Shown here: in pieces, positions 27,751 to 43,522 of the stretch
How positions within the stretch are numbered: the first letter of the stretch is position 1
Layout of the letters: each line of letters opens with the position of its first letter
The notes under the pieces: generated by a model
The model's database searches: none
Told to the model about the DNA's origin: nothing
What the model saw: the letters and a program-made list of their open reading frames with translations, nothing else
Translations under genes and position numbers: made by a program
Assembly: GCA_031372565.1 (NCBI GenBank)
Contig: JANMLN010000166.1
Coordinates: 1 to 53,282 of the forward strand
Length of the DNA: 53,282 nt
Reading direction: 5' to 3'
DNA from: Gemmatimonadota bacterium
GTDB lineage: Bacteria > Gemmatimonadota > Gemmatimonadetes > Gemmatimonadales > Gemmatimonadaceae

Positions 27751-28389
27751 TCATCGCCCGGCAGCGCGCCATTCGGCGCGCCATTCACACACTCCCTCAC
27801 CACGTGACGCACACCGGACATGATCCACGGCGCCCGCGCCGTCGACCAGGAGCTTGAGCAGTTCGCGCAGCGCGGCTTCTTGCAAGGCGCACCCGGACTG
27901 CCGCGGCCCCGTGTCAAGGGTCACCGAGGACGGCACCGACAGGAGCACGGAGGAGCCGACACGTGCGACGGTGCCCCCGAGATACCGCACCGCGATGCGC
28001 CGCATGTGGCGCAGCGCCAGCGGGCGGGCGAGCATGCCCGGCAGGGTCCGCATGATGCTGCGCGATACCGGGGCGACGCGCGCATACGCCTCGTTTGCCA
28101 GGTAGCGTCCCGCCGATCGGAACACGACCTCGGCGTCGGTGCGCCGTCCGACCAAGCGGGCGAGGGCGACGGCCTCATCGAACGGGATGCGCTGACCACG
28201 GCGCACGGCGTCGCTGTAGCGGCGGATTTGCGCGTACACCGTCTCGGACAGGCCGAGGCGCTTGTTTCGCAGCTCCGGAACCAGTTCGGCCTCGAGGTCG
28301 CCGTCGGGGGCGTCCACGAGGCGAACCGCCTCGAGGAAAGCGAGGGGGAGGAGGGCGTCTACCGTGCGGGAAGGCCTTGGGTCAGTCAC
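27751..28389 (-). CDS. hypothetical protein with V4R-like C-terminus
   Basis: GCAL...HVRCASRGEGVCEW Cys pattern; start GTG 28389. Confidence 0.6.
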   Translation of the reverse strand: MTDPRPSRTVDALLPLAFLEAVRLVDAPDGDLEAELVPELRNKRLGLSETVYAQIRRYSDAVRRGQRIPFDEAVALARLVGRRTDAEVVFRSAGRYLANEAYARVAPVSRSIMRTLPGMLARPLALRHMRRIAVRYLGGTVARVGSSVLLSVPSSVTLDTGPRQSGCALQEAALRELLKLLVDGAGAVDHVRCASRGEGVCEWRAEWRAAGR

Positions 28390-28547
28390 GGCGGCGGAAG
28401 GTAACAGGTGCCCGGGCAGAAGGTGATCGTCGGGGCTGGGAACCGGAACGGACCGTTCCCGCTTATAGGGGGAACAACTGGACCACACCCGGTCTTTCCC
28501 TCTGGACCGGGGTTGGACCCGCATCCCTCACCTCCGGACGGCGCGGC

Positions 28548-28835
28548 ATGGCCACAGCTCGAGAGCAGCAGCACCAGCAGGCGCCACTCGAGTGCCACGA
28601 CTTCGCGCCGCACCTTGAGACGCTGCTCGACGGAGAGCTGAACGGGCACCAGCTGGAGTTCACCCTGCGGCACCTGCAGCGATGTACGGCCTGCCAGCGT
28701 GGTGCCGAGCACGCCAAGCGATATCGCGAGGCCATGCGCCGCGCGCACGAGGCCGACCGCGCGGAGCCGGAGCTGCTGGCCCGGATGCGCATGCGTGTTC
28801 GGCACGCCACCTCGACGGCGCAACCGCCACGTTGA
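28548..28835 (+). CDS. zf-HC2 (ZAS) anti-sigma-factor-like small protein
   Basis: LEC.......L...LDGEL.........HLQRCTAC (HxxxCxxC). Confidence 0.8.
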   Translation: MATAREQQHQQAPLECHDFAPHLETLLDGELNGHQLEFTLRHLQRCTACQRGAEHAKRYREAMRRAHEADRAEPELLARMRMRVRHATSTAQPPR

Positions 28836-29656
28836 TCGCGCGCACGCTTGCCGGCACCGCCGTCGCCGGTGGTGTGGCGCTGTTGGCGTGGCGCGCACGC
28901 TCGCTGTCCCGGTCGGGGGCCATCGCGGCCACGATCACGGGTGCCGTGGCCATCGGCGCCGGATGGGCATGGGGCGCCCTCCTGATCGGTTACTTCGTCT
29001 CATCGAGCGCACTCACGCGCATGGGTGCAGACAGGAAGGAACGGCGCACCGGGAGCGTGGTCGAGAAGGGGGGCGCACGCGATGCCTGGCAGGTGGCCGC
29101 CAACGGTGGCGTCTTCGCACTCGCCGCGCTGCTGGCCGCGTGGCAACATCCCGATGCAGCGCCGCCGGCGTGGGCTGCACTCGTGGGCGCTGGCACACTC
29201 GCCGCCGCAGCCGCCGACACCTGGTCCACCGAGATCGGCACGTTGCGTGGCGGCGAGCCACGACTGATCACCACATGGCGCCTGGTGCCGACGGGCACGT
29301 CAGGCGGAATCACGGGCTGGGGGACGCTCGGCGCGCTGTTGGGCGGCTCGGCGGTGGCAGCACTCGCGTTTCCGCTCGTCCTCGGGCCGGCAGGCCTGAG
29401 CGCGTGGTCAGGGGTCGTGATTGCGGCGTCGGGCGTGGTCGGCGCCTTTGCCGATAGCCTGCTGGGCGCCACGGTGCAGGCGCGCCGCCGCTGCCCCCGA
29501 TGCGACCGCGCAACGGAGCGACGGATCCACGATTGCGGCACCATCACGGTCCATGCAGGCGGCTGGCCCTGGATGACCAACGATGTGGTGAACGGGCTGG
29601 CGACCGTCGCGGGGGCGATCCCGCCGCTCGCGCTCGTCGCGCTGCTCGACCGGTGA
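28832..29656 (+). CDS. DUF92/TMEM19 family membrane protein
   Basis: LSRSGA, RDAWQVAANG, ADTWSTEIG, GTSGGIT, DSLLGATVQ, NDVVN; TTG start overlaps upstream TGA. Confidence 0.9.
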   Translation: MIARTLAGTAVAGGVALLAWRARSLSRSGAIAATITGAVAIGAGWAWGALLIGYFVSSSALTRMGADRKERRTGSVVEKGGARDAWQVAANGGVFALAALLAAWQHPDAAPPAWAALVGAGTLAAAAADTWSTEIGTLRGGEPRLITTWRLVPTGTSGGITGWGTLGALLGGSAVAALAFPLVLGPAGLSAWSGVVIAASGVVGAFADSLLGATVQARRRCPRCDRATERRIHDCGTITVHAGGWPWMTNDVVNGLATVAGAIPPLALVALLDR

Positions 29657-29746
29657 ACTCCGGAAAGCGCCCGATGACACGCTGTGTGTGCACGACTAGA
29701 CTCCGACGGTCAGGATGCGTGTTCGCGCCGAGAATCAGGGTGGCCC

Positions 29747-30973
29747 TTGCGATCGAGTGACGACGCTGACGTGATCGTGGTCGGTGGTGGCCCGGCCGGT
29801 GCGTCGGTTGCCGCGTTTCTCGCACGTGAGGGGGTCGATGTGGTCCTGCTCGATCGGGCCCGCTTTCCGCGCGAGAAGCCGTGCGCCGAGTACCTGAGCC
29901 CCGAGGCCTCACGCGTCCTGTCGGTGCTCGGCGCGCTCGAGCAGGTGGAAGCCGCGGGTGCCGCCCAGTTGGACGGCATGCTCGTGCGCGCGCCCAGCGG
30001 CCGTTCGTTTCACGGTGCCTTCGCGGCCGCCCGTGGCTTTCGCGGCTTCCGGAGCCGTGGCCTCGCGCTGCGACGACTGCACCTAGATGACATCGTGCTG
30101 GGTGCGGCGCGGGCGGCGGGGGTGCGGGTCGTCGAGGGGGCGCGCGTGAGCGCGCTCGTGACCGTGCAGGGGCGCACGGTCGGCGTGATGAGCGAGGAAG
30201 GCGGACGGCGCGTGGTGCGGCGGGCCACGCTGGTCATCGGCGCGGACGGGCTGCGTTCGGTCGTCGCGCGACGGCTTGGCCTGGCCGCGCACGCGTTCTG
30301 GCCGCGCCGCGTGGCCTTCGTCGCGCACTATCGCGGCGTGCGCGGCATGGGGCGCGCCGGCGAGATGCACGTGCACGCCGACGGCTACGTCGGGCTGGCG
30401 GACGTGGGCCACGGCGAAACCAACGTCGCCGTCGTGGTGCCGGCATCGCTGGCGCGCGCCGCCAAGGGGGACGCCGAGGGGTTCTTCGGGCGATGGCTCG
30501 CGGCGCGGCCACAGTTGACCGCGCGGCTCGCGGACGCCGAGCGCGTCAACGACGTGCGTGTGACCGGGCCCTTTGCCAGCCGAGCGCGGCGCGCGTGGTC
30601 GAGCGGTGCCGCGCTCGTCGGCGATGCCGCCGATTTCTTCGACCCGTTCACCGGCGAGGGGATCTACGCCGCGCTGCGGGGTGGCGAGCTGCTCGCGCCA
30701 TTTGCCGCCGAGGCGGTGCGCACCTCCGGTCGGGCACAGGACCGCGTGCTCGCGGGTTATGACGAGGCGCGGAAACGTGAGTTCGCGGGCAAGTGGCGCG
30801 TCGAGCGGATCATTGGAGCGGCGGTCGGTGTGCCGACGCTCATGAACCACGCGGCCCGTGTGCTTGGACGCGAACCTCACCTCGCCGACCTGCTCGTGGG
30901 GATCGCGGGCGACGTGGTGCCCGCCAATTCCCTCTTCGCCCCGCGCGTTCTCGCCCACTTCCTTCGGCCATGA
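29747..30973 (+). CDS. geranylgeranyl-reductase/FixC-family FAD-dependent oxidoreductase
   Basis: DVIVVGGGPAG, FPREKPCAEYLSP, IGADGLRS, VGDAADFFDPFTGEGI; start uncertain (29684-29771). Confidence 0.88.
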   Translation: MRSSDDADVIVVGGGPAGASVAAFLAREGVDVVLLDRARFPREKPCAEYLSPEASRVLSVLGALEQVEAAGAAQLDGMLVRAPSGRSFHGAFAAARGFRGFRSRGLALRRLHLDDIVLGAARAAGVRVVEGARVSALVTVQGRTVGVMSEEGGRRVVRRATLVIGADGLRSVVARRLGLAAHAFWPRRVAFVAHYRGVRGMGRAGEMHVHADGYVGLADVGHGETNVAVVVPASLARAAKGDAEGFFGRWLAARPQLTARLADAERVNDVRVTGPFASRARRAWSSGAALVGDAADFFDPFTGEGIYAALRGGELLAPFAAEAVRTSGRAQDRVLAGYDEARKREFAGKWRVERIIGAAVGVPTLMNHAARVLGREPHLADLLVGIAGDVVPANSLFAPRVLAHFLRP

Positions 30974-31446
30974 GCATCGATACGGACGACTTCCGCGCCC
31001 TCCTCGGGCGCTTCGCTTCCGGCGTGACGGTGGTCACCACCGTCGACGCCGAGGGACACGACTACGGCATGACGGTCAGCGCGTTCTCGTCGGTGTCGCT
31101 CGACCCACCGCTCGTGCTCACGTGCATCGCGAAGGATGCGTCGGTGTACGCCGCATTCGAGCGCGCCCCGTCCTTCGTGATCAACATTCTCGCGGATGGG
31201 CAGGAGGCGCTGTCGCGCCGGTTCGCCGGCCCCATCTGGGATCGCTTTGCCGGTATCGGGTACACGCGCTCCGAGAACGGCGCGGCGATCCTGTCCGACG
31301 TGCTGGCCTGGATCGAGGGGCGCGTCGTCGCGCGGCACGATGCCGGTGATCACCTGATCCTGGTGGCACAGGTCGAACGCGGTGCGGTCGAGGAGCATCG
31401 TCCGCTGCTGTACTACCGTGGGGGCTATGCCCAGCTTGAGCGCTGA
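30970..31446 (+). CDS. flavin reductase (DIM6/NTAB family)
   Basis: FRALLGRFASGVTVVT, GMTVSAFSSVSLDPPL, AGDH, PLLYYRG. Confidence 0.93.
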   Translation: MSIDTDDFRALLGRFASGVTVVTTVDAEGHDYGMTVSAFSSVSLDPPLVLTCIAKDASVYAAFERAPSFVINILADGQEALSRRFAGPIWDRFAGIGYTRSENGAAILSDVLAWIEGRVVARHDAGDHLILVAQVERGAVEEHRPLLYYRGGYAQLER

Positions 31447-32161
31447 CGCGCGCGCGGGCTTTCTCGTCCCCACGCGTCGGCGCGGCATCGAGCACCTCGA
31501 CGATCCGCGCTCGGCGTCAGCATCCGATGTGCTCGCCGAGCTGACCGACGTGTCGCGTGCGAATGCGCTGTTTGGTGGCACGCGCGCCGTGGTGCGCGAG
31601 GTGCTGGAGGCGTGCGCCAGCAGCACGCGGGTGCGCACACTGCTCGACGTTGGTACGGGGATCGGCGATATCCCGCGCGCCGCGCGAACGGCGGCCGCCT
31701 CCCGTGGCATATCATTGAGCGTGATGGGGCTCGAACTCTCGGAGCCTGCGGCACGCGCGGCGCATGCCGCATCCGGTGCGGCGATCGTGGCCGATGCGTT
31801 CCGGTTGCCGTTCGCCGATCGCAGCGTGGACATCGTCACCTGCTCGCAGGTCCTGCATCACTTCGACGCCACCGACGGAGCGCGACTGATCCGCGAACTG
31901 GATCGCGTGGCGCGCGTTCGCGTGATCGTGAGCGAGCTCCGTCGGTCGTGGGCCGCGGCGGCTGGCGTCTGGATGGCTTCGTTCCCGCTCGGGTTCCATC
32001 CGAACAGCCGGCACGACGGCGTGCTCTCGGTACTGCGCGGCTTCACCGCCGCCGAACTCGCCTCGCTCATTGGTCTCGCCGTGTCGCGACCGGCCGTGTC
32101 GCGCCGACGCGCCGGCTTCCGCGTGACCGCCCACTGGACCCCTTCGGGAGCATTCGCATGA
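31427..32161 (+). CDS. class I SAM-dependent methyltransferase
   Basis: EHLDDP, ANALFGG, LLDVGTGIGD, ADAFRLPF, SQVLHHF, RHDGVLSVLRGFT. Confidence 0.88.
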   Translation: MPSLSADARAGFLVPTRRRGIEHLDDPRSASASDVLAELTDVSRANALFGGTRAVVREVLEACASSTRVRTLLDVGTGIGDIPRAARTAAASRGISLSVMGLELSEPAARAAHAASGAAIVADAFRLPFADRSVDIVTCSQVLHHFDATDGARLIRELDRVARVRVIVSELRRSWAAAAGVWMASFPLGFHPNSRHDGVLSVLRGFTAAELASLIGLAVSRPAVSRRRAGFRVTAHWTPSGAFA

Positions 32162-32706
32162 CGGCACCGCCGCCAGAACGCGCCTTGCGCGCGCCCTACA
32201 AGCTCGGGCCCATGCCCCTGCGTCGCGCGATGTATACCCTCGACGAAGGGGTGTGCCGGACCGACGTCGAGACCATCTTCCGCCTCGTTGCCGACGTGGA
32301 GCAGTGGCCGCAACACCTGGCCCACTACCGCTGGGTGACGATGGTCGAGCGCACGCGCGACGGCGGCGGCATTGTCGAGATGGCGGCGAACCGCCCCTTC
32401 GGCCCCATCAACTGGCCGACCTGGTGGAAGTCGTACATGACGGTCGATCATGACGCGCCGGAAGTGCGCTTTCGCCACATCGGCGGCATCACGACGGCCA
32501 TGGACGTGTCGTGGAGCTTCAAGCGGGTCCCCGAGGGCACGCACGTGACCTTGCTGCACGTGTGGGACGGCCCGGACTGGCCGATCATCCGGACGGTCGC
32601 GGCCGTGGCCGTCATCGGCCCCGTCTTCGTCCATGGCATTGCCTCGCGCACGATGGCGGGCCTCATCGCGGCGGCTGAGCGCGGCGTCACATCGGAGCAG
32701 ACGTGA
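32158..32706 (+). CDS. SRPBCC/START-fold polyketide cyclase/aromatase-like protein
   Basis: IFRLVADVEQWPQHL, MDVSWSF, GTHVTLLH. Confidence 0.8.
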   Translation: MTAPPPERALRAPYKLGPMPLRRAMYTLDEGVCRTDVETIFRLVADVEQWPQHLAHYRWVTMVERTRDGGGIVEMAANRPFGPINWPTWWKSYMTVDHDAPEVRFRHIGGITTAMDVSWSFKRVPEGTHVTLLHVWDGPDWPIIRTVAAVAVIGPVFVHGIASRTMAGLIAAAERGVTSEQT

Positions 32707-33947
32707 GCGAACGTCGGCGCGTCGTCATTACCGGCATCGGGGCCATCACCCCGATCGGCACGGGCAAGGAAGGACTCTGGCGCGGCCTGCAGGCACGGCA
32801 ATCTGCCGTGCGCACGCTCACGCGCTTCGATCCGTCGATCTTCCGCTCGCACAATGCCGCACAGGTCGATGACTTCAGCGCCGCCGACCATCTCGAGACC
32901 AAGCGGGCCAAGCGGCTGGACCGGTTCGGGCAGCTGTCCGTTGTCGCGTCGCGCCTCGCGGTGGAAGACTCCGGACTCGACTTCGCCAAGGAGGACGGTG
33001 ACCGGATCGGCGCCTACATGGGTACCGCGCTTGGCGGCGTCGGCTACGCCGAGGAGCAGCTGGGCGTGTTCCTCAAGGACGGCCTGCGCGCGGTCGACGC
33101 GACGCTGGCACTGGCCGTGTTCGGCGGGGCCTCGAGTTGCAACATCGCGATCGAGTTCGGCGTGCGGGGACCGAATGCCACCAACGCGATGAGCTGCGCC
33201 TCGGGTGCGATTGCCATCGGCGAAGCGTTTCGGCAGGTGCGCGACGGCTACGCCGACGTGATGATCGCCGGAGGCGCCGAGGCACCGCTGGCCCCGCTCT
33301 GCTTCGGCGCGTTCGCGCTCATTCGTGCCATGAGCACGCGGAACGACGACCCGGCGCGCGCCTCGCGGCCGTTCGACAAGGATCGCGACGGCTTTGTCAT
33401 GGGCGAAGGAGCCGCGGTGCTGATTCTCGAATCGCTCGACCGCGCACAGGCGCGCGGCGCGCGGATCTACGCCGAGATCGCGGGCTACGGGACCACGAAC
33501 GATGCGTACCACATGACCGCCCCCCGTCCCGACGGTGCGCAGGCAGCACGCAGTATCCGACTCGCGCTCGATGACGCACACATTGGCGCGCACGAGATCG
33601 GGTATGTGAACGCGCATGGCAGCGCCACACCGCTCAACGACCCGACCGAGACGCTGGCCATCAAGCAGGTCCTGGGCGAGCACGCGCACCGGATTCCGGT
33701 GAGTGGCACCAAGGGGTACTACGGCCACGCGCTCGGCGCCTCCGGCGCGATCGAGGCCGCCATCAGCGCGCTGGCCATCGACCGGCAGTGGCTCCCGCCC
33801 ACGGTGAATCATGAGGCGGCCGCGCCGGACTGCGACCTCGACTATCTGACCGGCGAGGGGCGCAGTGCACGCGTCGAGCACGTGCTCTCCAATTCGTTCG
33901 GCTTCGGCGGGATCAACGCCGCACTGGTGTTCCGGCGCGTGGTGTAG
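32703..33947 (+). CDS. beta-ketoacyl-ACP synthase II-like ketosynthase (FabF/KS-alpha family)
   Basis: RRVVITGIG; intact Cys-His-His set (MSCASG, NAHGSAT, KGYYGHALGA); SRPFDKDRDGFVMGEG; SNSFGFGG. Confidence 0.93.
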   Translation: MSERRRVVITGIGAITPIGTGKEGLWRGLQARQSAVRTLTRFDPSIFRSHNAAQVDDFSAADHLETKRAKRLDRFGQLSVVASRLAVEDSGLDFAKEDGDRIGAYMGTALGGVGYAEEQLGVFLKDGLRAVDATLALAVFGGASSCNIAIEFGVRGPNATNAMSCASGAIAIGEAFRQVRDGYADVMIAGGAEAPLAPLCFGAFALIRAMSTRNDDPARASRPFDKDRDGFVMGEGAAVLILESLDRAQARGARIYAEIAGYGTTNDAYHMTAPRPDGAQAARSIRLALDDAHIGAHEIGYVNAHGSATPLNDPTETLAIKQVLGEHAHRIPVSGTKGYYGHALGASGAIEAAISALAIDRQWLPPTVNHEAAAPDCDLDYLTGEGRSARVEHVLSNSFGFGGINAALVFRRVV

Positions 33948-33960
33948 GCACACCACGCAC

Positions 33961-33998
33961 TGCGGGGCGGTACCGGAGGTCGCCGGCACCGCCCCGCA
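33961..33998. terminator. hairpin between convergent genes
   Basis: tgcggggcggt...accgccccgca inverted repeat. Confidence 0.65.
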
Positions 33999-34016
33999 GA
34001 TCGTTCACCGCCCGGG

Positions 34017-34427
34017 CTACGGCTTGGCGCGCTTCTGCATGCGCTCGCCGCGCGCTTCGCGCTGGTCACCGCGCTTCTGCATGCGCTCGCCCTGATTCTC
34101 CTTGCGCTCGCCGCGATTCTCGAGTCGCTCACCGCGCTCCTGCATGCGCTCGCCGGCGCGCTCCATCTTCTCGTTGCCCTTGGCTTCGCCCTTCTGCTCC
34201 AGCGCCTCACCGCGCTTCTGCATGCGCTCGCCGCGGGCGTCCTGCGCCTCCCCACGATTCTCGCGACGTTCGCCGCGGTTCTCGAGACGTTCGCCACTGC
34301 GCTCGACGCCCTTGCCGCGGGCGCCGAGGCCAGGACGGGCCGCACGGGCACTCGAATCCTGCGCGTAGAGCGGCATGGACGCCGCGAAGAGCGCGGCGAG
34401 GGCGATCGGGGTCAGGATGCGTCGCAT
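34017..34427 (-). CDS. secreted low-complexity heptad-repeat protein
   Basis: RBS AGGAG, signal peptide MRRILTPIALAALFAASMPLYA, then repeated GERxxxR units. Confidence 0.8.
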   Translation of the reverse strand: MRRILTPIALAALFAASMPLYAQDSSARAARPGLGARGKGVERSGERLENRGERRENRGEAQDARGERMQKRGEALEQKGEAKGNEKMERAGERMQERGERLENRGERKENQGERMQKRGDQREARGERMQKRAKP

Positions 34428-34592
34428 GGTATCTCCTGGCGGGAACGGTCCGCCGATGAACTCGAGAAGGTGTCGGCGCGCCACTCGGCGCGTCCGTCGG
34501 TCGTGTGCGCAGGTAGACTGTGCCTGGGGCCGAGACGTTAAAGGCGTGCGCCCGGTCACCAGCGGCTTCGTGACGTGCACCACGTGAATCGC

Positions 34593-35349: not shown

Positions 35350-36663
35350 ATGCCACGCTCGCTTCGCAAGTTTGCGGTAGGGCTCTGCTCCGCGCTCGTC
35401 GTCCTTGCCGCGCGGCCAGTCGCCGCGCAGGAGCTGCGATCGCGCATCGACGCGGCCGTCGCACAAGCGAGCGACAAGATCATCGTGCTGCGCCAGCAGC
35501 TGCACCAGAATCCGGAGCTCGGCAACCGCGAGTTCGAGACGGGCAAGGTGGTCGCCGCACACCTCAAGGGACTCGGCCTCGAGGTGCGAACCGGCGTGGC
35601 CAAGACGGGCATCGTGGCGGTCCTCAAGGGAGGGCGTCCCGGTCCCGTCATCGCGATTCGCTCCGACATGGACGCGCTGCCTGTGACCGAAGCGTCGGGC
35701 TATCCGACGCCGAGCACCAAGCGCACGACGTACCTCGGCAAGGATGTCGGCGTGGCCCATGCCTGCGGGCACGACATTCACATGGCGGTCGTGCTCGGCG
35801 TCGCCTCGGTCCTCGCGCCGCTCAAGGCACAGCTCCCCGGCACGATCGTCTTCCTGTTCCAGCCGTCCGAGGAGGGACCGCCTGCGGGGGAGGAGGGAGG
35901 CGCCGAGTTGATGCTCAAGGAAGGGGTGTTCGCCGAGTTCAAGCCGACGGCCGTGTTCGGCCTGCACACGAGCCCCGACCTGCCCGTGGGCCAGGTGGGC
36001 TACGCCCCCGGCCCCTTCTTTGCCGAATCCGACCAGATCAGCATCACCGTCACCGGCAAGCAGGCGCACGGCGCGGCACCGCACGAGAGCGTCGACCCGA
36101 TCGTGATTGCGTCACAGATCGTGCTGGCGCTGCAGACCATCCGATCGCGGAACGTGCCGCCGCTCGCGGCGAGCGTGGTGACGATCGGCATCATCCAGGG
36201 CGGGGAGCGTGGCAACATCATCCCGGGCAAGGTCGAGATGGTCGGCACCGTGCGCACGTACAGCACGGACGTGCGCAAGTTGATCCAGCGACGCATCACC
36301 GAGATCGCCGAGCTCACGGCACGGGCGGGCGGTGGGAGCGCGGTGGTCAAGTATGAGCTCGGGCCCTCGCCCGTCATCAACGACACGGCGCTCACGCGTC
36401 GCATGGCCCCCACGCTCGAGCGCGTGCTCGGCAAGGGGAACGCGAAGATTGTCGATCCCACGATGGGCGCCGAGGATTTCGCACTCTTCGCCAATGCAAC
36501 GCCCGGCCTGTTCGTGCGCCTCGGCACCACGAGGCCCGGCGGGACGTCGGGGCTGTGGCACACGCCGGACTTTCTCGCGGATGACCAGAGCGTGCCGATG
36601 GGGATGAAGGTGATGGCGAACTTGCTCGTCGACTACCTCTCGCCCAAGGGCGTCACGCCGTGA
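35350..36663 (+). CDS. secreted M20D amidohydrolase
   Basis: Signal peptide; LHQNPELGNRE, RSDMDALP, HACGHD, FQPSEE, GLH, GAEDF. Confidence 0.92.
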   Translation: MPRSLRKFAVGLCSALVVLAARPVAAQELRSRIDAAVAQASDKIIVLRQQLHQNPELGNREFETGKVVAAHLKGLGLEVRTGVAKTGIVAVLKGGRPGPVIAIRSDMDALPVTEASGYPTPSTKRTTYLGKDVGVAHACGHDIHMAVVLGVASVLAPLKAQLPGTIVFLFQPSEEGPPAGEEGGAELMLKEGVFAEFKPTAVFGLHTSPDLPVGQVGYAPGPFFAESDQISITVTGKQAHGAAPHESVDPIVIASQIVLALQTIRSRNVPPLAASVVTIGIIQGGERGNIIPGKVEMVGTVRTYSTDVRKLIQRRITEIAELTARAGGGSAVVKYELGPSPVINDTALTRRMAPTLERVLGKGNAKIVDPTMGAEDFALFANATPGLFVRLGTTRPGGTSGLWHTPDFLADDQSVPMGMKVMANLLVDYLSPKGVTP

Positions 36664-39101
36664 GCACGACGCCGGCGGCGGATGCGCCCCGGCGGCTGGC
36701 GGCGATGCGCGCGGTGTCCGCACCGGCGCTGATCGCCGCGATTCCCACCGCGGTCGCGCTCGTGGGCGCCATGCGCTTTCAGTTCACCGCGAGCCCGGGC
36801 GCCGCCGGCGCACAGCTGCTCGCGGTGGTCGGCGGCCTCTCGCTTGCGTGTGCGATGGCCGTGCGCGGTGCCGCGCGACACGCGGACGGATTTCGCCGCG
36901 ACGTCGTGTGGGGCGCGACCGCCGCGCTCCTGCTGACCGCGGGCTGGGCGATCGTCGGACTCGCGAGTGAAGCGATGCGCCCCGCGTGCGGCAGCAGCAA
37001 GGGGCTCGTCCCGTTCGTGATCATCGCGGTGCCGGTCCTGCTGCTGCAGGGTGCCGTGGGTGCCTGGATCGGATGGCTCACGGGGCGAACGCGCCGCGCC
37101 GTCGCCATGCTGGTTGCGTTCGAACTGCTGGCGCTGCTCGCGCTCGGCGCCGGGTTCTACTTCGATCCGGCGTGGCGCGTCATGAGCCACCTGTTCGTGG
37201 CGCTGATCACGGAGCAGATGTGGGGGTCGGCGGCGCCTGAGGGCGTGGAGTCGTTCCGTGCCGCCACGTGCCTGTTCGCGATCGCCCTCGGCGCGTTCGG
37301 CGTGGCACTGTTTCCCGGTGCGCGGCACGCGGCAGTGGTTCGTCCCCGCCGCGCATGGATCGCAGGCGCGGTGCTGTTGACGCTGGGCCTGCTGGTCGAT
37401 CGCGCCGCACGGCCAGTCGTGGCGCCGACGCATGCTGCGCTCGCGCGCGCATACAGCCTGACGCGCTCGCGAGGTCCGCTGGTGCTCCACGCGGACCCGC
37501 TCGCCGTGCGCATCGCCGACCTCGACGTGCTGCTCGCCGAGGGGACGCTCTGGCTGGGCCGCATCGAGGCGCGACTCGGTCAGCGTCCACGGCAGCCGAT
37601 TCACGTCTGGGTCCACGCCACCCGGAGCGACAAGCAGCGGTGGACGGGCGCCTCGCTCGCAGACTTCGCGCTCCCGTGGCGACACGAGATCCATGTGCGA
37701 CTGGGCGGCGCGCAGCATCCGACGCTCGGACATGAGCTGGTGCACGTGATCGCCGGGGAGCCGCTGTCCACGCTCTTCGGGACCCCCGGTCGCTTCGTCG
37801 TGATGCAGCGTCCGGCGCTGGTCGAAGGGCTCGCGGTCGCCGTGGCGCACGAGCTCAAGCACTCCGATGATCTCACCGTGATCGAGGAGACGGCTGCGCT
37901 CACGCGATTGCACCGCGCGCCTGATCCCGAGCGGTTGTTCTCGGGGATCGCGTTTCTCGGTGAGGCGCACCAGAAGGCGTATGCGGCCGCCGGAGCGGCG
38001 CTTCAGGCACTGTCGATGCGCGCGCAGGACTCCGGGGCCACGCTGCGCCGCGTGTACGCGGCGGCATCGATCGAGGGCGCGCTCGGCCCGGACGCGAGCC
38101 GTTCATTTTTCGGAGCGTATCGCACGCTGCTCGACACGCTGACCCTGCCACCCGGTGCGCTGAGTGATGTGGACGGCGCGTTTGGCGCACCGTCGATCGT
38201 CGGCGGCACCTGCGGCGGTTCGACCGACGAACGCGGCCCCACGGCACGCCGCCTCGCGCGCAGCGGAGCGGTCGGCGCCGCGTTGACGGCACTGGGCCCG
38301 TCGCCGAGTGTGGCCACGCTCGAAGCGATCGAGCGCGACGTGCGAACGGTGGGCGACACGGCGGGGTTCGCGCCACTGGCCCGCGCGCTCGCGGCAGCAG
38401 GCGACAGCCTGACCGCGGCGCGACGACTGCTCTCTGCGGGCGACCTCTACTGGCTGGCCGACAGTGTGCGCGCCGCGAACGGTGCATGGGCGCAGGTGCC
38501 GATCACGCTCGCGACCGTTCCCCTCGCACGGGCTGTGCGCGTACGGCAGCTGCTCGGTGCGGTGGGCAGTGCGGCGGCTCCCGGGAGCATCGATGCGCGG
38601 ATCGCCCGCACCGCGCTGGCCATGCTGCTGCGACCGTCATGGCTCGGCTCCTCACCTGAGGCGGCGGTGCTGTTGCGGCTGCTCGACTCGGCCGATGCAC
38701 GCTCCGACGTGCGGACGTCGCTGGATGCGCGTCGCGTGCACTCGATGGCGCGGTATCTCCTCGCGCGCCGGCACACGCTCGCGGGGCGCCTGGATGCGGC
38801 CGAGCCGATGCTGGCGCGCGTGCAAGGCGAGCAGGTGCTGGACGCGCCGTTCCTCGAGGAAACGCTGATCCTGCGCGTGCGCGCGTTGGCCGGTGCCGGC
38901 CGCGCGGCCGAGGCGGCCGCGCTGTTGGCGCGCACGCCGCTCACCGGGGTGCGACGCGTCTTCGCCATGACGGTGTCGGACCTGCTCGAGCGCGCACAGC
39001 GCGCGGCGCTGGCACCTCATCGTCCGCGGAACCTCGACGAGGCCGCGGCCCCCGCGTGGGCCGACGCGCAGCTGCTGATGCCGTTCGACCCGTCGCCCTG
39101 A
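36660..39101 (+). CDS. multi-TM membrane protein with gluzincin-like peptidase domain
   Basis: About 7 TM segments, then HELVH and a downstream EGLA; helical C-terminus; GTGA overlap with the amidohydrolase. Confidence 0.6.
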   Translation: MSTTPAADAPRRLAAMRAVSAPALIAAIPTAVALVGAMRFQFTASPGAAGAQLLAVVGGLSLACAMAVRGAARHADGFRRDVVWGATAALLLTAGWAIVGLASEAMRPACGSSKGLVPFVIIAVPVLLLQGAVGAWIGWLTGRTRRAVAMLVAFELLALLALGAGFYFDPAWRVMSHLFVALITEQMWGSAAPEGVESFRAATCLFAIALGAFGVALFPGARHAAVVRPRRAWIAGAVLLTLGLLVDRAARPVVAPTHAALARAYSLTRSRGPLVLHADPLAVRIADLDVLLAEGTLWLGRIEARLGQRPRQPIHVWVHATRSDKQRWTGASLADFALPWRHEIHVRLGGAQHPTLGHELVHVIAGEPLSTLFGTPGRFVVMQRPALVEGLAVAVAHELKHSDDLTVIEETAALTRLHRAPDPERLFSGIAFLGEAHQKAYAAAGAALQALSMRAQDSGATLRRVYAAASIEGALGPDASRSFFGAYRTLLDTLTLPPGALSDVDGAFGAPSIVGGTCGGSTDERGPTARRLARSGAVGAALTALGPSPSVATLEAIERDVRTVGDTAGFAPLARALAAAGDSLTAARRLLSAGDLYWLADSVRAANGAWAQVPITLATVPLARAVRVRQLLGAVGSAAAPGSIDARIARTALAMLLRPSWLGSSPEAAVLLRLLDSADARSDVRTSLDARRVHSMARYLLARRHTLAGRLDAAEPMLARVQGEQVLDAPFLEETLILRVRALAGAGRAAEAAALLARTPLTGVRRVFAMTVSDLLERAQRAALAPHRPRNLDEAAAPAWADAQLLMPFDPSP

Positions 39102-39812: not shown

Positions 39813-40793
39813 CTACCCCAGCGCCCGCGCCGCGTCCACCGCGAAGTAGGTCAGGATGAAATCCGCCCCCGCACGCCGGATCCCGATCAGCGACTCCATC
39901 ATCACGCGGTCGCCATCGATCCACCCACGCTCCGCCGCCGCCTTGATCATCGCGAACTCGCCGCTCACCTGATACGCGCCCGTTGGATAGCCGGTCTCGG
40001 TCTTCACGCGGTGGATGATGTCGAGATACGGCCCCGCCGGCTTCACCATCACCAGGTAGGCCCCTTCATCGATGTCGAGCCAGACCTCGCGCATCGCCTC
40101 ATCCGAATTGGCCGCGTCCATCTGGTAGCCGCGCCGATCCCCGCTCTTGGGCGTGCTCTCGGCCGCCTCGCGAAATGGCCCGTAGTAGCCGGACGCGTAC
40201 TTCGCGGCATACGACAGAATGGGCAGTTGCTCGAACCCCTCACCGTCGAGCGCGTCGCGGATGGCGCGCACGCGACCATCCATCATGTCACTCGGCGCCA
40301 CGATGTCCGCGCCGGCGCGCGCGTGCGCGACGGCTTCCTTGGCGAGCAGCTCGAGCGACGCGTCGTTGTCCACCTCCCCCTCGTGCAGCAACCCGCAGTG
40401 CCCGTGGTCCGTGTACTCGCACATGCAGACGTCGGTGATCACGAGCAGCTGGCTCGTGGCCCGCTTGAGGGCGCGCACCGCCTGCGCCACGGGCCCCGCC
40501 TCATCCCACGCGCTCGAGCCGGTCGCGTCCTTGCGTTCCGGAATTCCGAACAGGATGACGCCGCCCACGCCCAGTGACTGCGCGAGCTCGGCGTCCTTCA
40601 CGCACTCGTCAACCGACGTCTGGAAGACGCCCGGCATCGAACCCACCGGCTCACGCACGCCACTCCCGGGCCGCACGAACAGCGGCCAGATGAGCTGCGC
40701 CGGATCGAGGCGCGTCTCCTGCATGAGCGCACGCAACGCCGCCGTACGGCGCATGCGGCGCGGGCGATACTCGGGAAATCGGGACATGGGCAT
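39813..40793 (-). CDS. hemB: porphobilinogen synthase (Zn-type)
   Basis: [45 protein letters not shown]. Confidence 0.96.
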
Positions 40794-40968
40794 GGTGCGG
40801 GAGGGACCCAACGGCGGGCGCGGGAAAGACTATCGCCCGGACCAACCGCCGTCACCCCCGCATCCACGGCACTCGCTGGGGCGGCGACACCGGCCCCTCG
40901 CATCCGGAGACCGCTTCCGTGCGCGCCCCGATGCGGCGGCGCGTCACGGAGTCCCGACAGACCGAGCG

Positions 40969-42339
40969 CTAGAAGAAGCTCTGACGGCGTCCGCCACCGA
41001 CGTTGGTCAGCGCATCGAGACGCGGATTGACCACGGTGTTGAAGATCGACCCGAAGGTGTACGACATGCCGACGTTCACGAAGAACCGGTAATCGGTCGC
41101 CAGTGCCAGCCGACGGACGAGCGCGTCCTGGTCGGACACGCCGGTGCCGACCAGATACAGCTGGTCGCGCACGCGGGAATAGAAGCCGCCAATGTTGAAC
41201 GCCAACCCGCGCGAGATGCGCAGGTCGGTGCCCAGACCCACGGTCGCCGAGTACTTGGTGACGTCATGCAGGTACTGCTCGCCGCGGAGCGAGGCGTTGA
41301 CCGACCCCCACGGCTGACGCTGAATCAACGAGGCGATGACCTTGTGCGTGGGGCGCGTCTCGGACATGCGCCCGAAGACCGTGACCCGCTGGTAGTCGAA
41401 GTGCGTGACACCGACGCTGTACAGGAAGGTCAGCTGTCGGCTCGTCGCTTCCTTCCATGGGTACACGTTGTATTCGATCGCCGGCCCCACGCGCGCGTAC
41501 AGTTCCTCGTTCAAGAAGTCCGAGAAGCCGACGTTGAGCAGCATCCCCGTCGACAGGTTGGAACCGAGTGAGCGCACCACCAGGACGTTCGCCTCCGCCC
41601 CATCACGGTCGAACCGCGACCGCGTGCCGTCCCGGAGCGTGAACTCCTGCACGTTCACGGATCCTCCCACCGCGATCGAGATCTTCCACAGATCGGACAC
41701 CCGACTCGCACTGGCAAAGAGGCTGAGGTCGCGCTCCGAAGTGCGGGTCTCCCCGCGGAAGGAGCCGTTGCCTCCGACGCGGAAGAGCCAGAAGTCCCAC
41801 GGATCCTTGACATTCGTCGGCATCATGCGCCCGGGCTGCGTCGTCGCCCCGCGGAAGGACACGTCGAGCCGCCGGGCCGCGCTGGTGCGGGCGGCATAGC
41901 GCGCGAGCCCCAACCGGAAGGTGCGCGCAAGGTCGCGACGGAGCACATCATCGGCGTCGTTCGGCAACGAGACATGCTTGAGCGTGTCGACGCTCCCCTC
42001 GAACCGCCGCTGACCGCGCACCGCGATCGTGTACTCCGTGCCGCCGTTTCCGGCGCGCAACGAGGTGACGAGAATGAGCACGTCGGCGTCGAACCGGTCG
42101 CGCATCCAGTACGCCCACGGCACCTCGGTGCGCACGAAATCGAAATCGCACCCGCGCTCGCGGCAGTCGAGAAAGACCTTGAGCTGGTCGCTCGAGTCCG
42201 TGCGCGCGGTGGCGCGCTCGGGAGCGGCCACAGCGGGAGGCGTCGGGGCCGGGGTCGGCTCCGGCTCCTGCGCAGCAAGCGAGCGGGCACCCAACATCAC
42301 AACAGCGCACGCGAGCGCGCGCGAGAAAGAGCGAGACAT
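40969..42339 (-). CDS. hypothetical outer-membrane beta-barrel-like protein
   Basis: Signal peptide; VFLDCRERGCD; amphipathic beta pattern; SYTFGSIFNTVVNPR near the C-terminus. Confidence 0.65.
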   Translation of the reverse strand: MSRSFSRALACAVVMLGARSLAAQEPEPTPAPTPPAVAAPERATARTDSSDQLKVFLDCRERGCDFDFVRTEVPWAYWMRDRFDADVLILVTSLRAGNGGTEYTIAVRGQRRFEGSVDTLKHVSLPNDADDVLRRDLARTFRLGLARYAARTSAARRLDVSFRGATTQPGRMMPTNVKDPWDFWLFRVGGNGSFRGETRTSERDLSLFASASRVSDLWKISIAVGGSVNVQEFTLRDGTRSRFDRDGAEANVLVVRSLGSNLSTGMLLNVGFSDFLNEELYARVGPAIEYNVYPWKEATSRQLTFLYSVGVTHFDYQRVTVFGRMSETRPTHKVIASLIQRQPWGSVNASLRGEQYLHDVTKYSATVGLGTDLRISRGLAFNIGGFYSRVRDQLYLVGTGVSDQDALVRRLALATDYRFFVNVGMSYTFGSIFNTVVNPRLDALTNVGGGRRQSFF

Positions 42340-42577
42340 CTGAAAAGGAGATTGGCGAGACGAAGGGCGGGACAATCGAACATCCCGATGCCGAGCACCT
42401 CCCATGCGGAGCCGTGCGAGTCGGCGCTTGGCGACCAGCCTTCGGACGCCTGCCCGTATTGGACAGCGCACGCCGACATCCGGTCGCTCGCTTTATCTAC
42501 GTCTCGCGTCGATCTTTCGTTGCAGGTCGCGCGGAGCGAAGCATCACTATTGTGATATTTACCTGTGGCTGCTCACG

Positions 42578-43522
42578 TCACACCGTCGTGCGCAGCTCCG
42601 CGAGAAGCTCCGCCCCGCCCTGCGCCTGCAGCGTCGCCGCCAGTCGGCGACCCGCGGCCGCCGCATCGCCCGCCCCGACCGGCTCGCTCCCGCGGAGCAC
42701 CGTCGTGCCGGCCAGATTCGCGATCAGGCCGTGCAGCACCAGGTCATCGTCTGTGCCCATCGACAGCGCCCCGATCGGCACCTGGCAGCCCCCTTCCAAC
42801 GCCGCCAGAAAGGCGCGCTCCGCGGCGACCGCGCGCGACGTCGACGGATGGTCGAGCGCGCCGAAGATCGCGACGCACGCCGCGTCATCGGCGCGGACCT
42901 GAATCGCGATTGCGCCCTGCCCCGCCGCCGGCAGCCACCGCGGCGCGTCGAGATACTCCACGATGCGCGTGCCAAGACCGAGGCGCCGAAGCCCCGCCGC
43001 GGCGAGGAACGCGGCATCCACCTGATGCTCATCGATCTTCTTGAGCCGCGTGCCCACATTGCCGCGCAGTTCCACCGGCACGAGGTCAGGCCGGAGCGCC
43101 GACAGCTGCGCCTTGCGCCGCAAACTCGATGAGCCGACGCGCGCACCGTGGGGCAACGTCATCAGCGTGTAGCGCGGCGAATCGGTGGGAAGCACCAGCG
43201 CGTCACGCGGATCCTCCCGCGTCAGGAGCGCCACGATCGCGAGCCCGTCAGGCGACGCCGTCGGCAGGTCCTTGAGCGAGTGCACCGCGCAGTCCGTGCG
43301 CCCCGCCAGCAGATCGTCCTCGAGCTCCTTCGTGAAGAGCCCCTTTTCGCCGATCTTCGACAGCGGCTTGTCGAGCACCTTGTCGCCCACGGTCGTGTAG
43401 GTGATCAGCTCGGCATGCACGCCACGCGCCGCCAGCAGTCCCTGCACCTGCTCCGCCTGCGCCAGCGCCAACGCGGATGACCGCGTGCCGATGCGCACCG
43501 TCGTGCCCCCTGCGCCGCTCAT
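42578..43522 (-). CDS. hemC: hydroxymethylbilane synthase
   Basis: IGTRSSALALAQ, GLFTKELE, VHSLKDLP, SSLRR, RGNVGTRL, LEGGCQVP. Confidence 0.96.
   Translation of the reverse strand: MSGAGGTTVRIGTRSSALALAQAEQVQGLLAARGVHAELITYTTVGDKVLDKPLSKIGEKGLFTKELEDDLLAGRTDCAVHSLKDLPTASPDGLAIVALLTREDPRDALVLPTDSPRYTLMTLPHGARVGSSSLRRKAQLSALRPDLVPVELRGNVGTRLKKIDEHQVDAAFLAAAGLRRLGLGTRIVEYLDAPRWLPAAGQGAIAIQVRADDAACVAIFGALDHPSTSRAVAAERAFLAALEGGCQVPIGALSMGTDDDLVLHGLIANLAGTTVLRGSEPVGAGDAAAAGRRLAATLQAQGGAELLAELRTTV

Follow-up and report, generated by a model that had tools for sequence, protein, structure and literature searches.

A four-gene ketosynthase-cyclase cassette of Gemmatimonadota as a candidate type III PKS-independent route to phenolic, pyrone or quinone-like lipids

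The srsABC operon and the mycobacterial polyketide-quinone operons are related phenolic-lipid systems that combine a methyltransferase (MT) and an oxidoreductase with a type III polyketide synthase (PKS). Two papers describe an MT-oxidoreductase-type III PKS order for hidABC of picocyanobacteria and for the planctomycete mtr-fdo-t3pks operons (PMC10896814, PMC6836626). In type II PKSs, the mono-domain aromatase/cyclases TcmN, WhiE-ORFVI, ZhuI and BexL are accompanied by a KS-alpha, a chain-length factor (CLF) and an acyl carrier protein (ACP). The operon described here, from a Gemmatimonadaceae genome, has features of both. Its MT and flavoprotein are of the types found in the former operons, but two genes, encoding an SRPBCC protein and a FabF-like ketosynthase (KS), replace the type III PKS. 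Judged from sequence, we give about an even chance to the view that these four genes form a route, free of any type III PKS, that leads to a putative phenolic, pyrone or quinone-like lipid.

The operon was found in a window of 53,282 nucleotides, the whole stretch of DNA analysed, as a run of seven tightly packed plus-strand genes (Table 1). The earlier note had placed seven co-oriented genes here with overlapping junctions and a closing hairpin, and all of these were recovered where it had put them, although its title named the KS first and the KS gene is in fact the last. The five overlaps were TTGA at 28832, ATGA at 30970, a 20-base overlap from the ATG at 31427, ATGA at 32158 and GTGA at 32703, so that four of the six junctions were 4-base overlaps. 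The sole gap, of 27 bases, separated the DUF92 and flavoprotein genes, whose start codons were the least certain in the operon. The GC3 of every gene was 0.80-0.90. The hairpin had a perfect 12-bp stem and a folding energy of about -38 kcal/mol across a 63-base stretch; it had no T run on its 3' side and was not among the sites listed by a consensus terminator scan. No gene for an ACP, CLF, FabG or FabZ was found in the run or its flanks, as had been claimed. A UbiA-family gene near the operon encodes heme O synthase.

Table 1. Coordinates of the operon genes and the downstream hairpin in the window
Feature	Position	Strand	Description
Small ZAS-like zinc-finger gene	28548..28835	+	95 aa; H-x3-C-x2-C; GC3 0.81
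DUF92 integral membrane protein gene	28832..29656	+	274 aa; PF01940, 219 bits
FAD flavoprotein gene	29684..30973	+	geranylgeranyl-reductase / halogenase-like fold family; core gene
Flavin reductase gene	30970..31446	+	158 aa; PF01613, 157.6 bits
Class I SAM methyltransferase (MT) gene	31427..32161	+	Methyltransf_11, 56 bits; core gene
SRPBCC gene, aromatase/cyclase-like fold	32158..32706	+	182 aa; Polyketide_cyc, 32.5 bits; core gene
FabF-like ketosynthase (KS) gene	32703..33947	+	414 aa; TIGR03150, 515.4 bits; core gene
G+C-rich hairpin	33960..34001		between the KS gene and the convergent minus-strand ORF 34017-34583

The KS was similar to housekeeping FabF (KAS II) in length and in its catalytic set, in which Cys165, His305, His342, Lys337 and Phe401 aligned with those of E. 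coli FabF; the Cys-His-His triad was thus intact, in agreement with the earlier note. It scored above the equivalog cut-off of TIGR03150 (493.75 bits), and its closest solved structures were FabFs, both of which weaken the phenolic-lipid reading. The note had allowed that the KS might be the only FabF of the genome or might nest within housekeeping FabF, but it is a second paralogue: the housekeeping FabF is encoded in a fabH-fabD-fabG-acpP-fabF locus on a separate contig (C91). The two paralogues were 41% identical, whereas the operon KS shared 55-65% identity with its cassette counterparts in three non-Gemmatimonadota contigs (L124, L127 and L178). In the KS tree, all 30 cassette KSs fell in one clade (support 99/99), apart from a cluster of 11 FAS-type KSs (93/80); this clade was weakly sister to the type II KS-alpha (89/57) but lay outside the KS-alpha clade itself. 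Three signatures also differed, with GxALGG, LALxVFGGAxSCN and TKGYYGH in the operon KS in place of GSGIGG, PFFVPMFIGDIAAG and TKSxTGH in FabF.

By profile and predicted fold, the SRPBCC protein was nearest to the type II PKS aromatase/cyclases. In the profile search of solved structures, BexL was matched at 1.2e-8, and the WhiE cyclase and TcmN were also found; the E-values of aromatase/cyclases were 1e-8 to 1e-5, against 0.014 for the CoQ10-like 1t17. The predicted model had a pLDDT of 88.9, and the eight top matches in Foldseek were WhiE-ORFVI, TcmN, SCO5315 and ZhuI. The residues W50, H56, Y57, R58, R79, W90, H107, W119 and H134 were invariant or nearly so in the family, and a Tyr aligned with Tyr35 of WhiE/TcmN was kept. 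However, the position aligned with the TcmN catalytic residue Arg69 was an invariant Met in the Gemmatimonadota family and either Met or Gln among its distant members, and this lack of conservation weakens the phenolic-lipid reading. The type II PKSs also differ in what accompanies the cyclase, since the operon has no CLF, dedicated ACP or ketoreductase. No type III PKS, CLF or dedicated ACP was found anywhere in this genome, in which the only PP-binding domains were those of AcpP (contig C91) and a multidomain PfaA-like ORF (C70). Among 61 longer homologues, 56 were in-frame MT-SRPBCC fusions, one of which (P0312) was checked directly, and a single flavoprotein-SRPBCC fusion (P0266) was present; the MT-cyclase fusions echo the name given to TcmN in its PDB entries, cyclase-dehydratase-O-methyltransferase.

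The earlier note had said that this MT type and this flavoprotein type often accompany type III PKSs, and the link was confirmed. In Paenibacillus, Deinococcus and Gemmatimonadota, homologues of both adjoined genes for type III PKSs, and two Gemmatimonadota genomes (G171 and G279) had the order MT-flavoprotein-type III PKS; such loci also occurred in Gemmatimonadota without the cassette. The motifs FPRxKxC(A/G)E, YVGL and GDAAxFxDPFTGEGI were common to the operon flavoprotein and the type III PKS-linked ones. The MT belonged to the same broad PRK06202-like family, with 114.8 bits against a cut-off of 243, where the type III PKS-linked MTs of Deinococcus and Paenibacillus scored 318 and 151; its position below the cut-off and its identity of only 30-33% to type III PKS-linked MTs weaken the phenolic-lipid reading. 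The flavoprotein scored 85.7 bits with FAD_binding_3, 135.9 bits with GG-red-SF (cut-off 158.8) and 91 bits with QhpG. Its best solved sequence relatives were the two-component FADH2-dependent halogenases CndH, CmlS, PltA and 8zop (79-99 bits), and a flavin reductase gene adjoins it, as in those systems. It lacked the halogenase motifs: GYVGLAD was read where WxWxIP was expected, and the residue aligned with the halogenase Lys was not Lys.

The conserved core of the cassette is the MT, the flavoprotein, the SRPBCC protein and the KS. The KS gene directly followed the SRPBCC gene in all 143 loci with at least 400 bases downstream (79/79 in genomes and 64/64 in metagenomes), including L084, with a 15-base overlap. 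Gene order, on whose loss the earlier note would have given up its reading, was kept across the order, and the bare core recurred outside the phylum as MT-flavoprotein-SRPBCC-KS in L124, L127 and L178, which is the MT-flavoprotein-synthase order of the type III PKS operons. In L124, the GC content was 0.51 and the SRPBCC protein clustered at 90% with a protein of Paenibacillus catalpae, and the genes around the core were unrelated in L124 and L127. In Gemmatimonadota, the order was instead flavoprotein-reductase-MT-SRPBCC-KS. The flavin reductase gene lay between the flavoprotein and MT genes in 13 of 14 relatives' loci, and 12 of the 14 had the DUF92 gene upstream in the same orientation; both were absent from L124, L127 and L178 and are Gemmatimonadota-specific additions. 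The flavin reductase, whose HsaB-like score of 147.5 bits was below the cut-off of 230, probably supplies FADH2 to the flavoprotein. The zinc-finger protein scored below the cut-offs of zf-HC2 (18.9 bits against 22.2) and RsrA (36.3 against 62.5); with homologues in only 2 of the 14 loci (L035 and L039), its gene is genus-specific and outside the cassette. The 257-aa ORF, M24 peptidase and MIP channel flanking the operon were likewise syntenic across the order.

Loss of the cassette was also concerted. The cassette KS was missing from all five Gemmatimonadota genomes without the SRPBCC protein (95-100% complete), and the core was co-lost or co-decayed in four of them: G047, G275 and G152 also lacked the MT and flavoprotein, and in G037 the locus remained in a decayed state, with TGA stops in frame. 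The fifth had lost SRPBCC-KS only, in a larger deletion. DUF92 was not found in three of the five. In a sample of 301 genomes of the phylum, the cassette SRPBCC was present in 4 of 25 type III PKS-positive and 191 of 276 type III PKS-negative genomes, counts that do not amount to a statistical test because the sampled genomes are related; the cassette and type III PKS genes are largely complementary in the phylum.

The KS and SRPBCC protein might instead be a specialised branch of fatty-acid synthesis leading to a non-aromatic modified lipid, such as an acyl chain with a beta-keto, methoxy or hydroxy group or a methyl branch, or one that is unusually long or unsaturated. The chain would then be modified by the MT and flavoprotein, with the SRPBCC protein serving as dehydratase, isomerase or lipid-holding partner. 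This agrees with the FabF-level score and solved relatives of the KS, with its far greater conservation than that of its neighbours across the order (65-93% versus 37-87% identity), with the near-core occurrence of the cassette in two families (56/70 and 116/125 genomes) and with the unconserved Arg69 position; the flavoprotein, in the geranylgeranyl-reductase family and with its Cys motif, could reduce a C=C bond. We nevertheless regard such a branch as unlikely, given the closeness of the SRPBCC protein to aromatase/cyclases in sequence and fold, the use of the same MT and flavoprotein families in type III PKS operons, the largely complementary distribution and the position of the KS outside the FAS-type group. 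Tailoring or chaperoning of an isoprenoid quinone such as menaquinone is improbable. In that scheme the SRPBCC protein would be a COQ10-like quinone binder, the MT would be UbiE/MenG-like, the flavoprotein MenJ/UbiH-like and DUF92 prenyl-phosphate-kinase-like, and the KS would be only a co-transcribed FabF paralogue. The weak NCBIfam matches of the MT (MenG/UbiE, 29 bits) and the flavoprotein (MenJ, 80.6 bits; UbiH-type hydroxylases), the labels 'COQ10' or 'RatA' for the SRPBCC protein in some source annotations and the adjacency of DUF92 to a geranylgeranyl-reductase-family gene all point that way, but the matches were far under the cut-offs, 1t17 was a much poorer match than the aromatase/cyclases, the SRPBCC protein had its most constant partner in the KS, which was lost with it, DUF92 was absent from the cassettes outside the phylum, and the nearby UbiA-family gene was that of heme O synthase. 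Conserved order within the Gemmatimonadales is itself weak functional evidence because the flanking genes are syntenic too, yet functionally unrelated genes held together by inherited synteny in this order alone are scarcely credible. That explanation was largely refuted by the recurrence of the core between unrelated genes in contigs whose composition is quite different, the MT-SRPBCC fusions and the co-loss, with decay of the whole block in G037; the four 4-base overlaps also speak against it.

Replacement of the type III PKS by the KS and cyclase, with the fatty-acid ACP, to give a putative methylated and oxidised phenolic lipid is, on these sequence comparisons, evenly balanced between support and doubt. 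The KS, which we infer to act as a homodimer, would accept a fatty acyl chain from housekeeping AcpP and extend it iteratively with malonyl-ACP without reduction, so that its substrates would be carried on ACP and not on CoA as in the type III PKS operons. The SRPBCC protein would fold and cyclise the beta-keto chain, the MT would methylate the ring, and the flavoprotein would oxidise it with reduced flavin from the adjacent flavin reductase, yielding an alkylresorcinol- or quinone-like product. Against this, no lone FabF-type KS is known to build poly-beta-keto chains without a CLF, neither a thioesterase nor a release enzyme is present in the cassette, the trees of the MT and flavoprotein were weakly resolved with long branches, a type III PKS accompanies the cassette in four genomes, and G224 has kept DUF92-flavoprotein-reductase-MT with neither SRPBCC-KS nor a type III PKS. 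In type III PKS operons, too, what the oxidoreductase does is described as unsettled (PMC10896814). The reading of the earlier note was partly supported, by the extra KS, the conserved order and the type III PKS link; DUF92, the flavin reductase and the zinc-finger gene lie outside the core that recurs beyond the phylum. No published description of the cassette was found in the literature, and the operon suggests an undescribed way to phenolic or quinone-like lipids.

The operon consisted of seven open frames on the + strand at 28548-33947 (GC3 0.80-0.90) in a window of 65-71% G+C. Its features and those of the surrounding DNA are collected in the table. The junctions were, in order, TTGA, a 27-base gap after the DUF92 gene, ATGA, a 20-base overlap, ATGA and GTGA, and the hairpin preceded a convergent ORF. 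A look for transcript evidence of a shared mRNA found six sequencing runs, every one of them sediment metagenome DNA, and no RNA run. The seven-gene run with its overlapping junctions and closing hairpin was present as the earlier note had described it. All the genes named there were found, but the ketosynthase (KS) gene was the last of the run and not the first. Its reading that ACP, chain-length factor (CLF), FabG and FabZ were absent also held, for both the run and its flanks. The DUF92 protein scored 120 bits against TIGR00297, below the cut-off of 205.85, and the flavin reductase reached none of the NCBIfam equivalog cut-offs. The divergent 257-aa ORF was syntenic across the order (40-84% identity, 13 of 14 loci). 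The two ORFs of 813 and 507 aa were located near hemB, hemC and the inorganic pyrophosphatase gene.

Features of the operon and of its surroundings in the window
Feature	Coordinates	Strand	Evidence
257-aa ORF, divergent from the operon	27751-28524	-	V4R 21.8 bits, sole family match, weak, below cut-off
Small protein, 95 aa, H-x3-C-x2-C zinc-finger motif	28548-28835	+	zf-HC2 18.9 bits, RsrA 36 bits, both below cut-off
DUF92 protein	28832-29656	+	PF01940 219.1 bits (Pfam gathering score 27.5)
FAD flavoprotein	29684-30973	+	FAD_binding_3 85.7 bits; TIGR02032 135.9 bits
Flavin reductase	30970-31446	+	PF01613 157.6 bits (gathering score 27)
Class I SAM methyltransferase (MT)	31427-32161	+	PRK06202 114.8 bits, below cut-off 243
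SRPBCC (cyclase-like) protein	32158-32706	+	Polyketide_cyc 32.5 bits
FabF-like KS	32703-33947	+	TIGR03150 515.4 bits (cut-off 493.75)
Hairpin	33960-34001		3' of the KS stop codon; 12-bp G+C-rich stem, about -38 kcal/mol, without a T tail
813-aa ORF	36660-39101	+	no Pfam family at E <= 0.001
hemB	39813-40829		
507-aa ORF	40969-42492	-	no Pfam family at E <= 0.001
hemC	42578-43792		

The catalytic set of the KS was intact, as had been read from the DNA, with Cys165, His305, His342, Lys337 and Phe401 aligned with the set of E. coli FabF. The closest solved structures were FabFs (417 bits), and the actinorhodin KS scored 325 bits. The source genome (95.85% complete, 201 contigs) contained the separate fabF-acpP locus that the earlier note had proposed to look for, in the form of fabH-fabD-fabG-acpP-fabF on contig C91; the FabF encoded there scored 592 bits and was 41% identical to the window KS. 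In a maximum likelihood tree of 45 sequences with few references and only a midpoint root, all 30 cassette KSs formed one clade (99/99), and 11 FAS-type KSs grouped separately (93/80), namely six Gemmatimonadota FabFs, Bacillus and Listeria FabF, E. coli FabF and FabB, and a Streptomyces plasmid fabF. This phylogeny, of the kind suggested in the earlier note, placed the cassette clade outside the FAS-type group. The clade fell beside, not within, a pair of KS-alpha sequences from Streptomyces, as their weakly supported sister (89/57, small reference sample), and two CLF-type sequences were placed far off. Alignment revealed signatures common to the cassette KSs and missing from the housekeeping copies. 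Like a housekeeping FabF, the window KS passed the TIGR03150 equivalog cut-off, yet it had neither the FAS-type placement nor fab/acpP neighbours. Judged by these sequence comparisons, the KS is an extra paralogue distinct from the housekeeping FabF.

In contrast to a type II minimal PKS, which has a CLF and a cluster ACP, the operon contained neither. No CLF (KS-beta) was found in the window, and a genome-wide KS search gave, besides FabF and the cassette KS, just two domains of a large multidomain ORF on contig C70 and one weak match. No AcpP-like gene was detected in the window, in the loci of 14 relatives or in 80 metagenome loci by tblastn with the fatty-acid carrier AcpP at E up to 1, a search that very divergent ACPs may escape. 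In the genome, PF00550 was found only in AcpP and in the C70 multidomain ORF (2318 aa), so that AcpP was the sole free-standing ACP. Since no ACP is encoded in the cassette, the KS would be dependent on AcpP. At about 5900-13400 of C70, an ORF of about 2300 aa combined a KS domain with three PP-binding domains in tandem and was followed by a second KS-bearing ORF, an arrangement similar to that of PfaA-type synthases of polyunsaturated fatty acids or hydrocarbons.

The SRPBCC protein was related to cyclases by both profile and model. Against solved structures, the best matches of the family profile were the type II PKS aromatase/cyclases BexL (1.2e-8), WhiE cyclase and TcmN, and the CoQ10-like 1t17 reached only 0.014. 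In a Foldseek search with the AlphaFold model (pLDDT 88.9), ranks 1-8 were occupied by WhiE-ORFVI, TcmN, SCO5315 and ZhuI (E 3.5e-10 to 1e-8, TM 0.65-0.70); as predicted, the helix-grip fold is closest to the ARO/CYC structures. Tyr35 and Arg69 of TcmN are pocket residues. The nearly invariant Y57 of the SRPBCC protein, within an H-Y-R motif, aligned with this pocket tyrosine. Unlike the aromatase/cyclases of the TcmN/WhiE type, however, the protein had Met94 at the position of Arg69, and distant members had Met or Gln. The invariant polar residues H56, R58, R79, H107 and H134 could be substitutes for Arg69. Prediction of a KS-SRPBCC complex gave a score of 0.00 and no model, which bears neither way on binding. 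A profile search with a 15-sequence SRPBCC alignment was filled by near-identical Gemmatimonadota proteins, and a search of the plasmid collection gave no SRPBCC match. Some SRPBCC matches spanned one in-frame stop, TGA in G252, G314 and G301 (genomes of one genus), G260 and G002, and TAG in G014; the search may have read through the overlapping stop of the upstream gene, or the copy may be broken, or there may be another cause.

The closest solved relatives of the flavoprotein were FADH2-dependent halogenases. A halogenase role was rejected because the WxWxIP motif and the aligned lysine were missing: in alignments to 8zop, CndH and 5buk, GYVGLAD stood in place of GW(L/F)WYIP. The score for the geranylgeranyl reductase family TIGR02032 was also under its cut-off of 158.8. 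The flavoprotein and the adjacent reductase are best described, by homology, as a putative two-component flavoenzyme with a GG-reductase/halogenase-like fold that would act as a hydroxylase or a reductase. A nearby UbiA-family gene was considered as the prenyltransferase of the pathway and discarded, as it encodes heme O synthase (337 bits, cut-off 246).

Gene order was conserved in relatives, as the reading in the earlier note implied, with flavoprotein-reductase-MT-SRPBCC-KS in 13 of 14 longer loci (14 genomes, three families); DUF92 was upstream in 12 of the 14 and the small zinc-finger gene was found in two. The flanking genes were also syntenic, and therefore order conservation inside the bacterial order is weak evidence alone. 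The SRPBCC gene occurred in 39 of 41 relatives and, with the 15-sequence profile, in 195 of a phylum-wide sample of 301 Gemmatimonadota genomes. It was frequent in families f1 (56/70) and f2 (116/125), rare in f6 (4/23) and f7 (4/48), and absent from f9-f12 (0/20); these tallies include four genomes flagged as unpublished, G012, G084, G123 and G202, which support none of the other conclusions. Among loci with 400 or more bases of downstream sequence, the KS gene was directly 3' of the SRPBCC gene in 79/79 from genomes and 64/64 from metagenomes. Scanning metagenomes with distant homologues of the SRPBCC protein as seed returned mostly Gemmatimonadota-like loci, plus three contigs from outside the phylum, L124, L127 and L178 (GC 0.51, 0.61 and 0.74), which carried MT-flavoprotein-SRPBCC-KS without reductase and DUF92. 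The flanks examined in L124 and L127 were unrelated to the cassette. The SRPBCC protein of L124 fell in a 90% cluster with a Paenibacillus catalpae protein, and its KS scored 486 bits against TIGR03150, below the cut-off that the window KS passes. Further contigs contained flavoprotein-SRPBCC-KS or SRPBCC-KS only. At 9746-13090 of L124, 29 bases past the cassette KS, a fused B12-binding/MeaB/methylmalonyl-CoA-mutase protein (IcmF-like, 1114 aa) was encoded, which might provide branched starter units or have nothing to do with the cassette.

The members were also lost together. All five SRPBCC-less Gemmatimonadota genomes that were examined (95-100% complete) had no cassette KS, and each had only a FabF 42-45% identical to it. 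MT and flavoprotein were missing as well from G047, G275 and G152, and DUF92 from the first two. In G037 the cassette had decayed at its syntenic site, and TGA stops interrupted what was left of the flavoprotein and KS genes; this copy (about 6200-9950 of L121, G037:C5:280000-296000) also kept 29 aa of DUF92 and a truncated MT, and the SRPBCC gene was missing from it. In G224, DUF92-flavoprotein-reductase-MT was kept, and a block that starts with SRPBCC and reaches nearly to the pyrophosphatase gene was gone. Additionally, MT and Polyketide_cyc domains occurred together in 56 of 61 longer SRPBCC homologues, with a clean alignment across both halves of the fusion P0312, and one flavoprotein-SRPBCC fusion was found (P0266). 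Two apparent SRPBCC-KS fusions were artefacts, and none is claimed: the 629-aa frame of locus L151 was the KS frame open upstream, with SRPBCC in another frame, and P0340 (729 aa) was a gene call full of frameshifts. A different arrangement of a lipid-binding protein plus FabF was seen on a plasmid of Streptomyces sp. NBC_01383 (L208, 825-6852), with an FAD oxidoreductase, an SCP2 sterol-binding protein, fabF, a cytochrome P450, an ACP and FabG.

The statement in the earlier note that these MT and flavoprotein types often accompany type III PKS (T3PKS) genes agrees with homologues found beside T3PKS genes in Paenibacillus, Deinococcus and the Gemmatimonadota genomes G171 and G279. Only two MT matches at E <= 1e-10 were present in the plasmid collection, from Paenibacillus cellulosilyticus (L122) and Deinococcus sp. 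QL22 (L123), and in both records the T3PKS gene preceded the MT homologue, with genes for an FAD enzyme and a serine hydrolase coming after it. The last of these (L122 11314-12480, L123 10862-12340) was a serine hydrolase or beta-lactamase-family protein. With 318 bits, the Deinococcus MT was a full member of PRK06202. The Paenibacillus flavoprotein was of the same GG-reductase/QhpG-like type as that of the window, and the Deinococcus one was of a different type. The window MT shared 30-33% identity with the T3PKS-linked MTs, in a comparison without HidA and SrsB. MT-flavoprotein-T3PKS was the arrangement in G171 and G279, and flavoprotein-T3PKS in G151; all three flavoproteins matched that of the window over the full length, at about 30% identity and with common motifs. 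In quick MT and flavoprotein trees, with weak support and long branches, T3PKS-linked sequences were interleaved among KS-linked ones. According to passages of PMC10896814 and PMC6836626, the arrangement MT-oxidoreductase-T3PKS is found in hidABC and at 58 of 96 planctomycete T3PKS loci, the PKS of those operons makes alkylresorcinols, and recombinant HidA methylates one. Compared with an operon of the hidABC type, the cassette in the window has a flavoprotein homologous to a T3PKS-linked one but no T3PKS gene.

PF02797 was not found in the source genome, and no T3PKS was present in any cassette locus. T3PKS scored above cut-off in 25 of the 301 sampled genomes, mostly in families f6 and f7, where the cassette is rare. 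The cassette SRPBCC was found in 4/25 T3PKS-positive versus 191/276 T3PKS-negative genomes; because the genomes are related, no statistic is attached to these counts. Within f1 and f2, three of the five T3PKS-positive genomes (G125, G151 and G171) were without the cassette.

The simplest account of the collected evidence is non-orthologous displacement, in which a FabF-derived KS and an aromatase/cyclase-like protein replace the T3PKS in small phenolic-lipid operons, a reading on which we are evenly divided. Its fuller form is plausible, although we hold it with somewhat more doubt than conviction: a KS derived from FabF would, as a homodimer, form a two-protein synthase with a TcmN-like cyclase that works on the cell's AcpP without CLF, dedicated ACP or thioesterase; this synthase would have displaced T3PKS and would provide most Gemmatimonadales, and scattered members of other phyla, with a membrane or redox lipid that is near-core. 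The KS would extend the chain iteratively without reduction, the chain would then be cyclised and released, and the product would be methylated and oxidised.

A specialised, non-aromatic branch of fatty-acid synthesis would suit the FabF-like character of the KS; the cyclase-like fold and the T3PKS-linked relatives of MT and flavoprotein speak against it, and we consider such a branch unlikely. Tailoring of a quinone, with the KS a mere passenger, would be in keeping with the MT and the flavoenzyme, and appears improbable beside the constant SRPBCC-KS adjacency, the joint absence of both genes and the poor CoQ10-like match. Synteny alone would explain the shared gene order within Gemmatimonadales, where the flanks are shared too, and is very hard to credit for the contigs in which unrelated DNA surrounds the same cassette.

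Displacement of the T3PKS by a KS and a cyclase, if true, would provide a clean natural case of non-orthologous displacement within a small operon. It would also constitute a new minimal aromatic polyketide architecture of KS and cyclase, in which fatty-acid synthesis lends the ACP and a CLF is dispensed with. The open-access literature, covered as listings, abstracts and some passages, contained no account of a KS and SRPBCC cassette with these partners, which is not proof of unpublished status. Rule-based cluster miners that expect KS-CLF-ACP or T3PKS would probably miss the cassette. Gemmatimonadota are common in soil and sediment, and their lipid and quinone chemistry is little known; the displacement reading, if true, would attach a function to a set of genes that about two thirds of the sampled genomes of the phylum carry. 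Effects of related phenolic lipids and polyketide quinones on antibiotic tolerance and low-oxygen respiration have been reported (cited in passages of PMC10896814), and the cassette product could therefore, if the reading is true, matter for the physiology of these bacteria.
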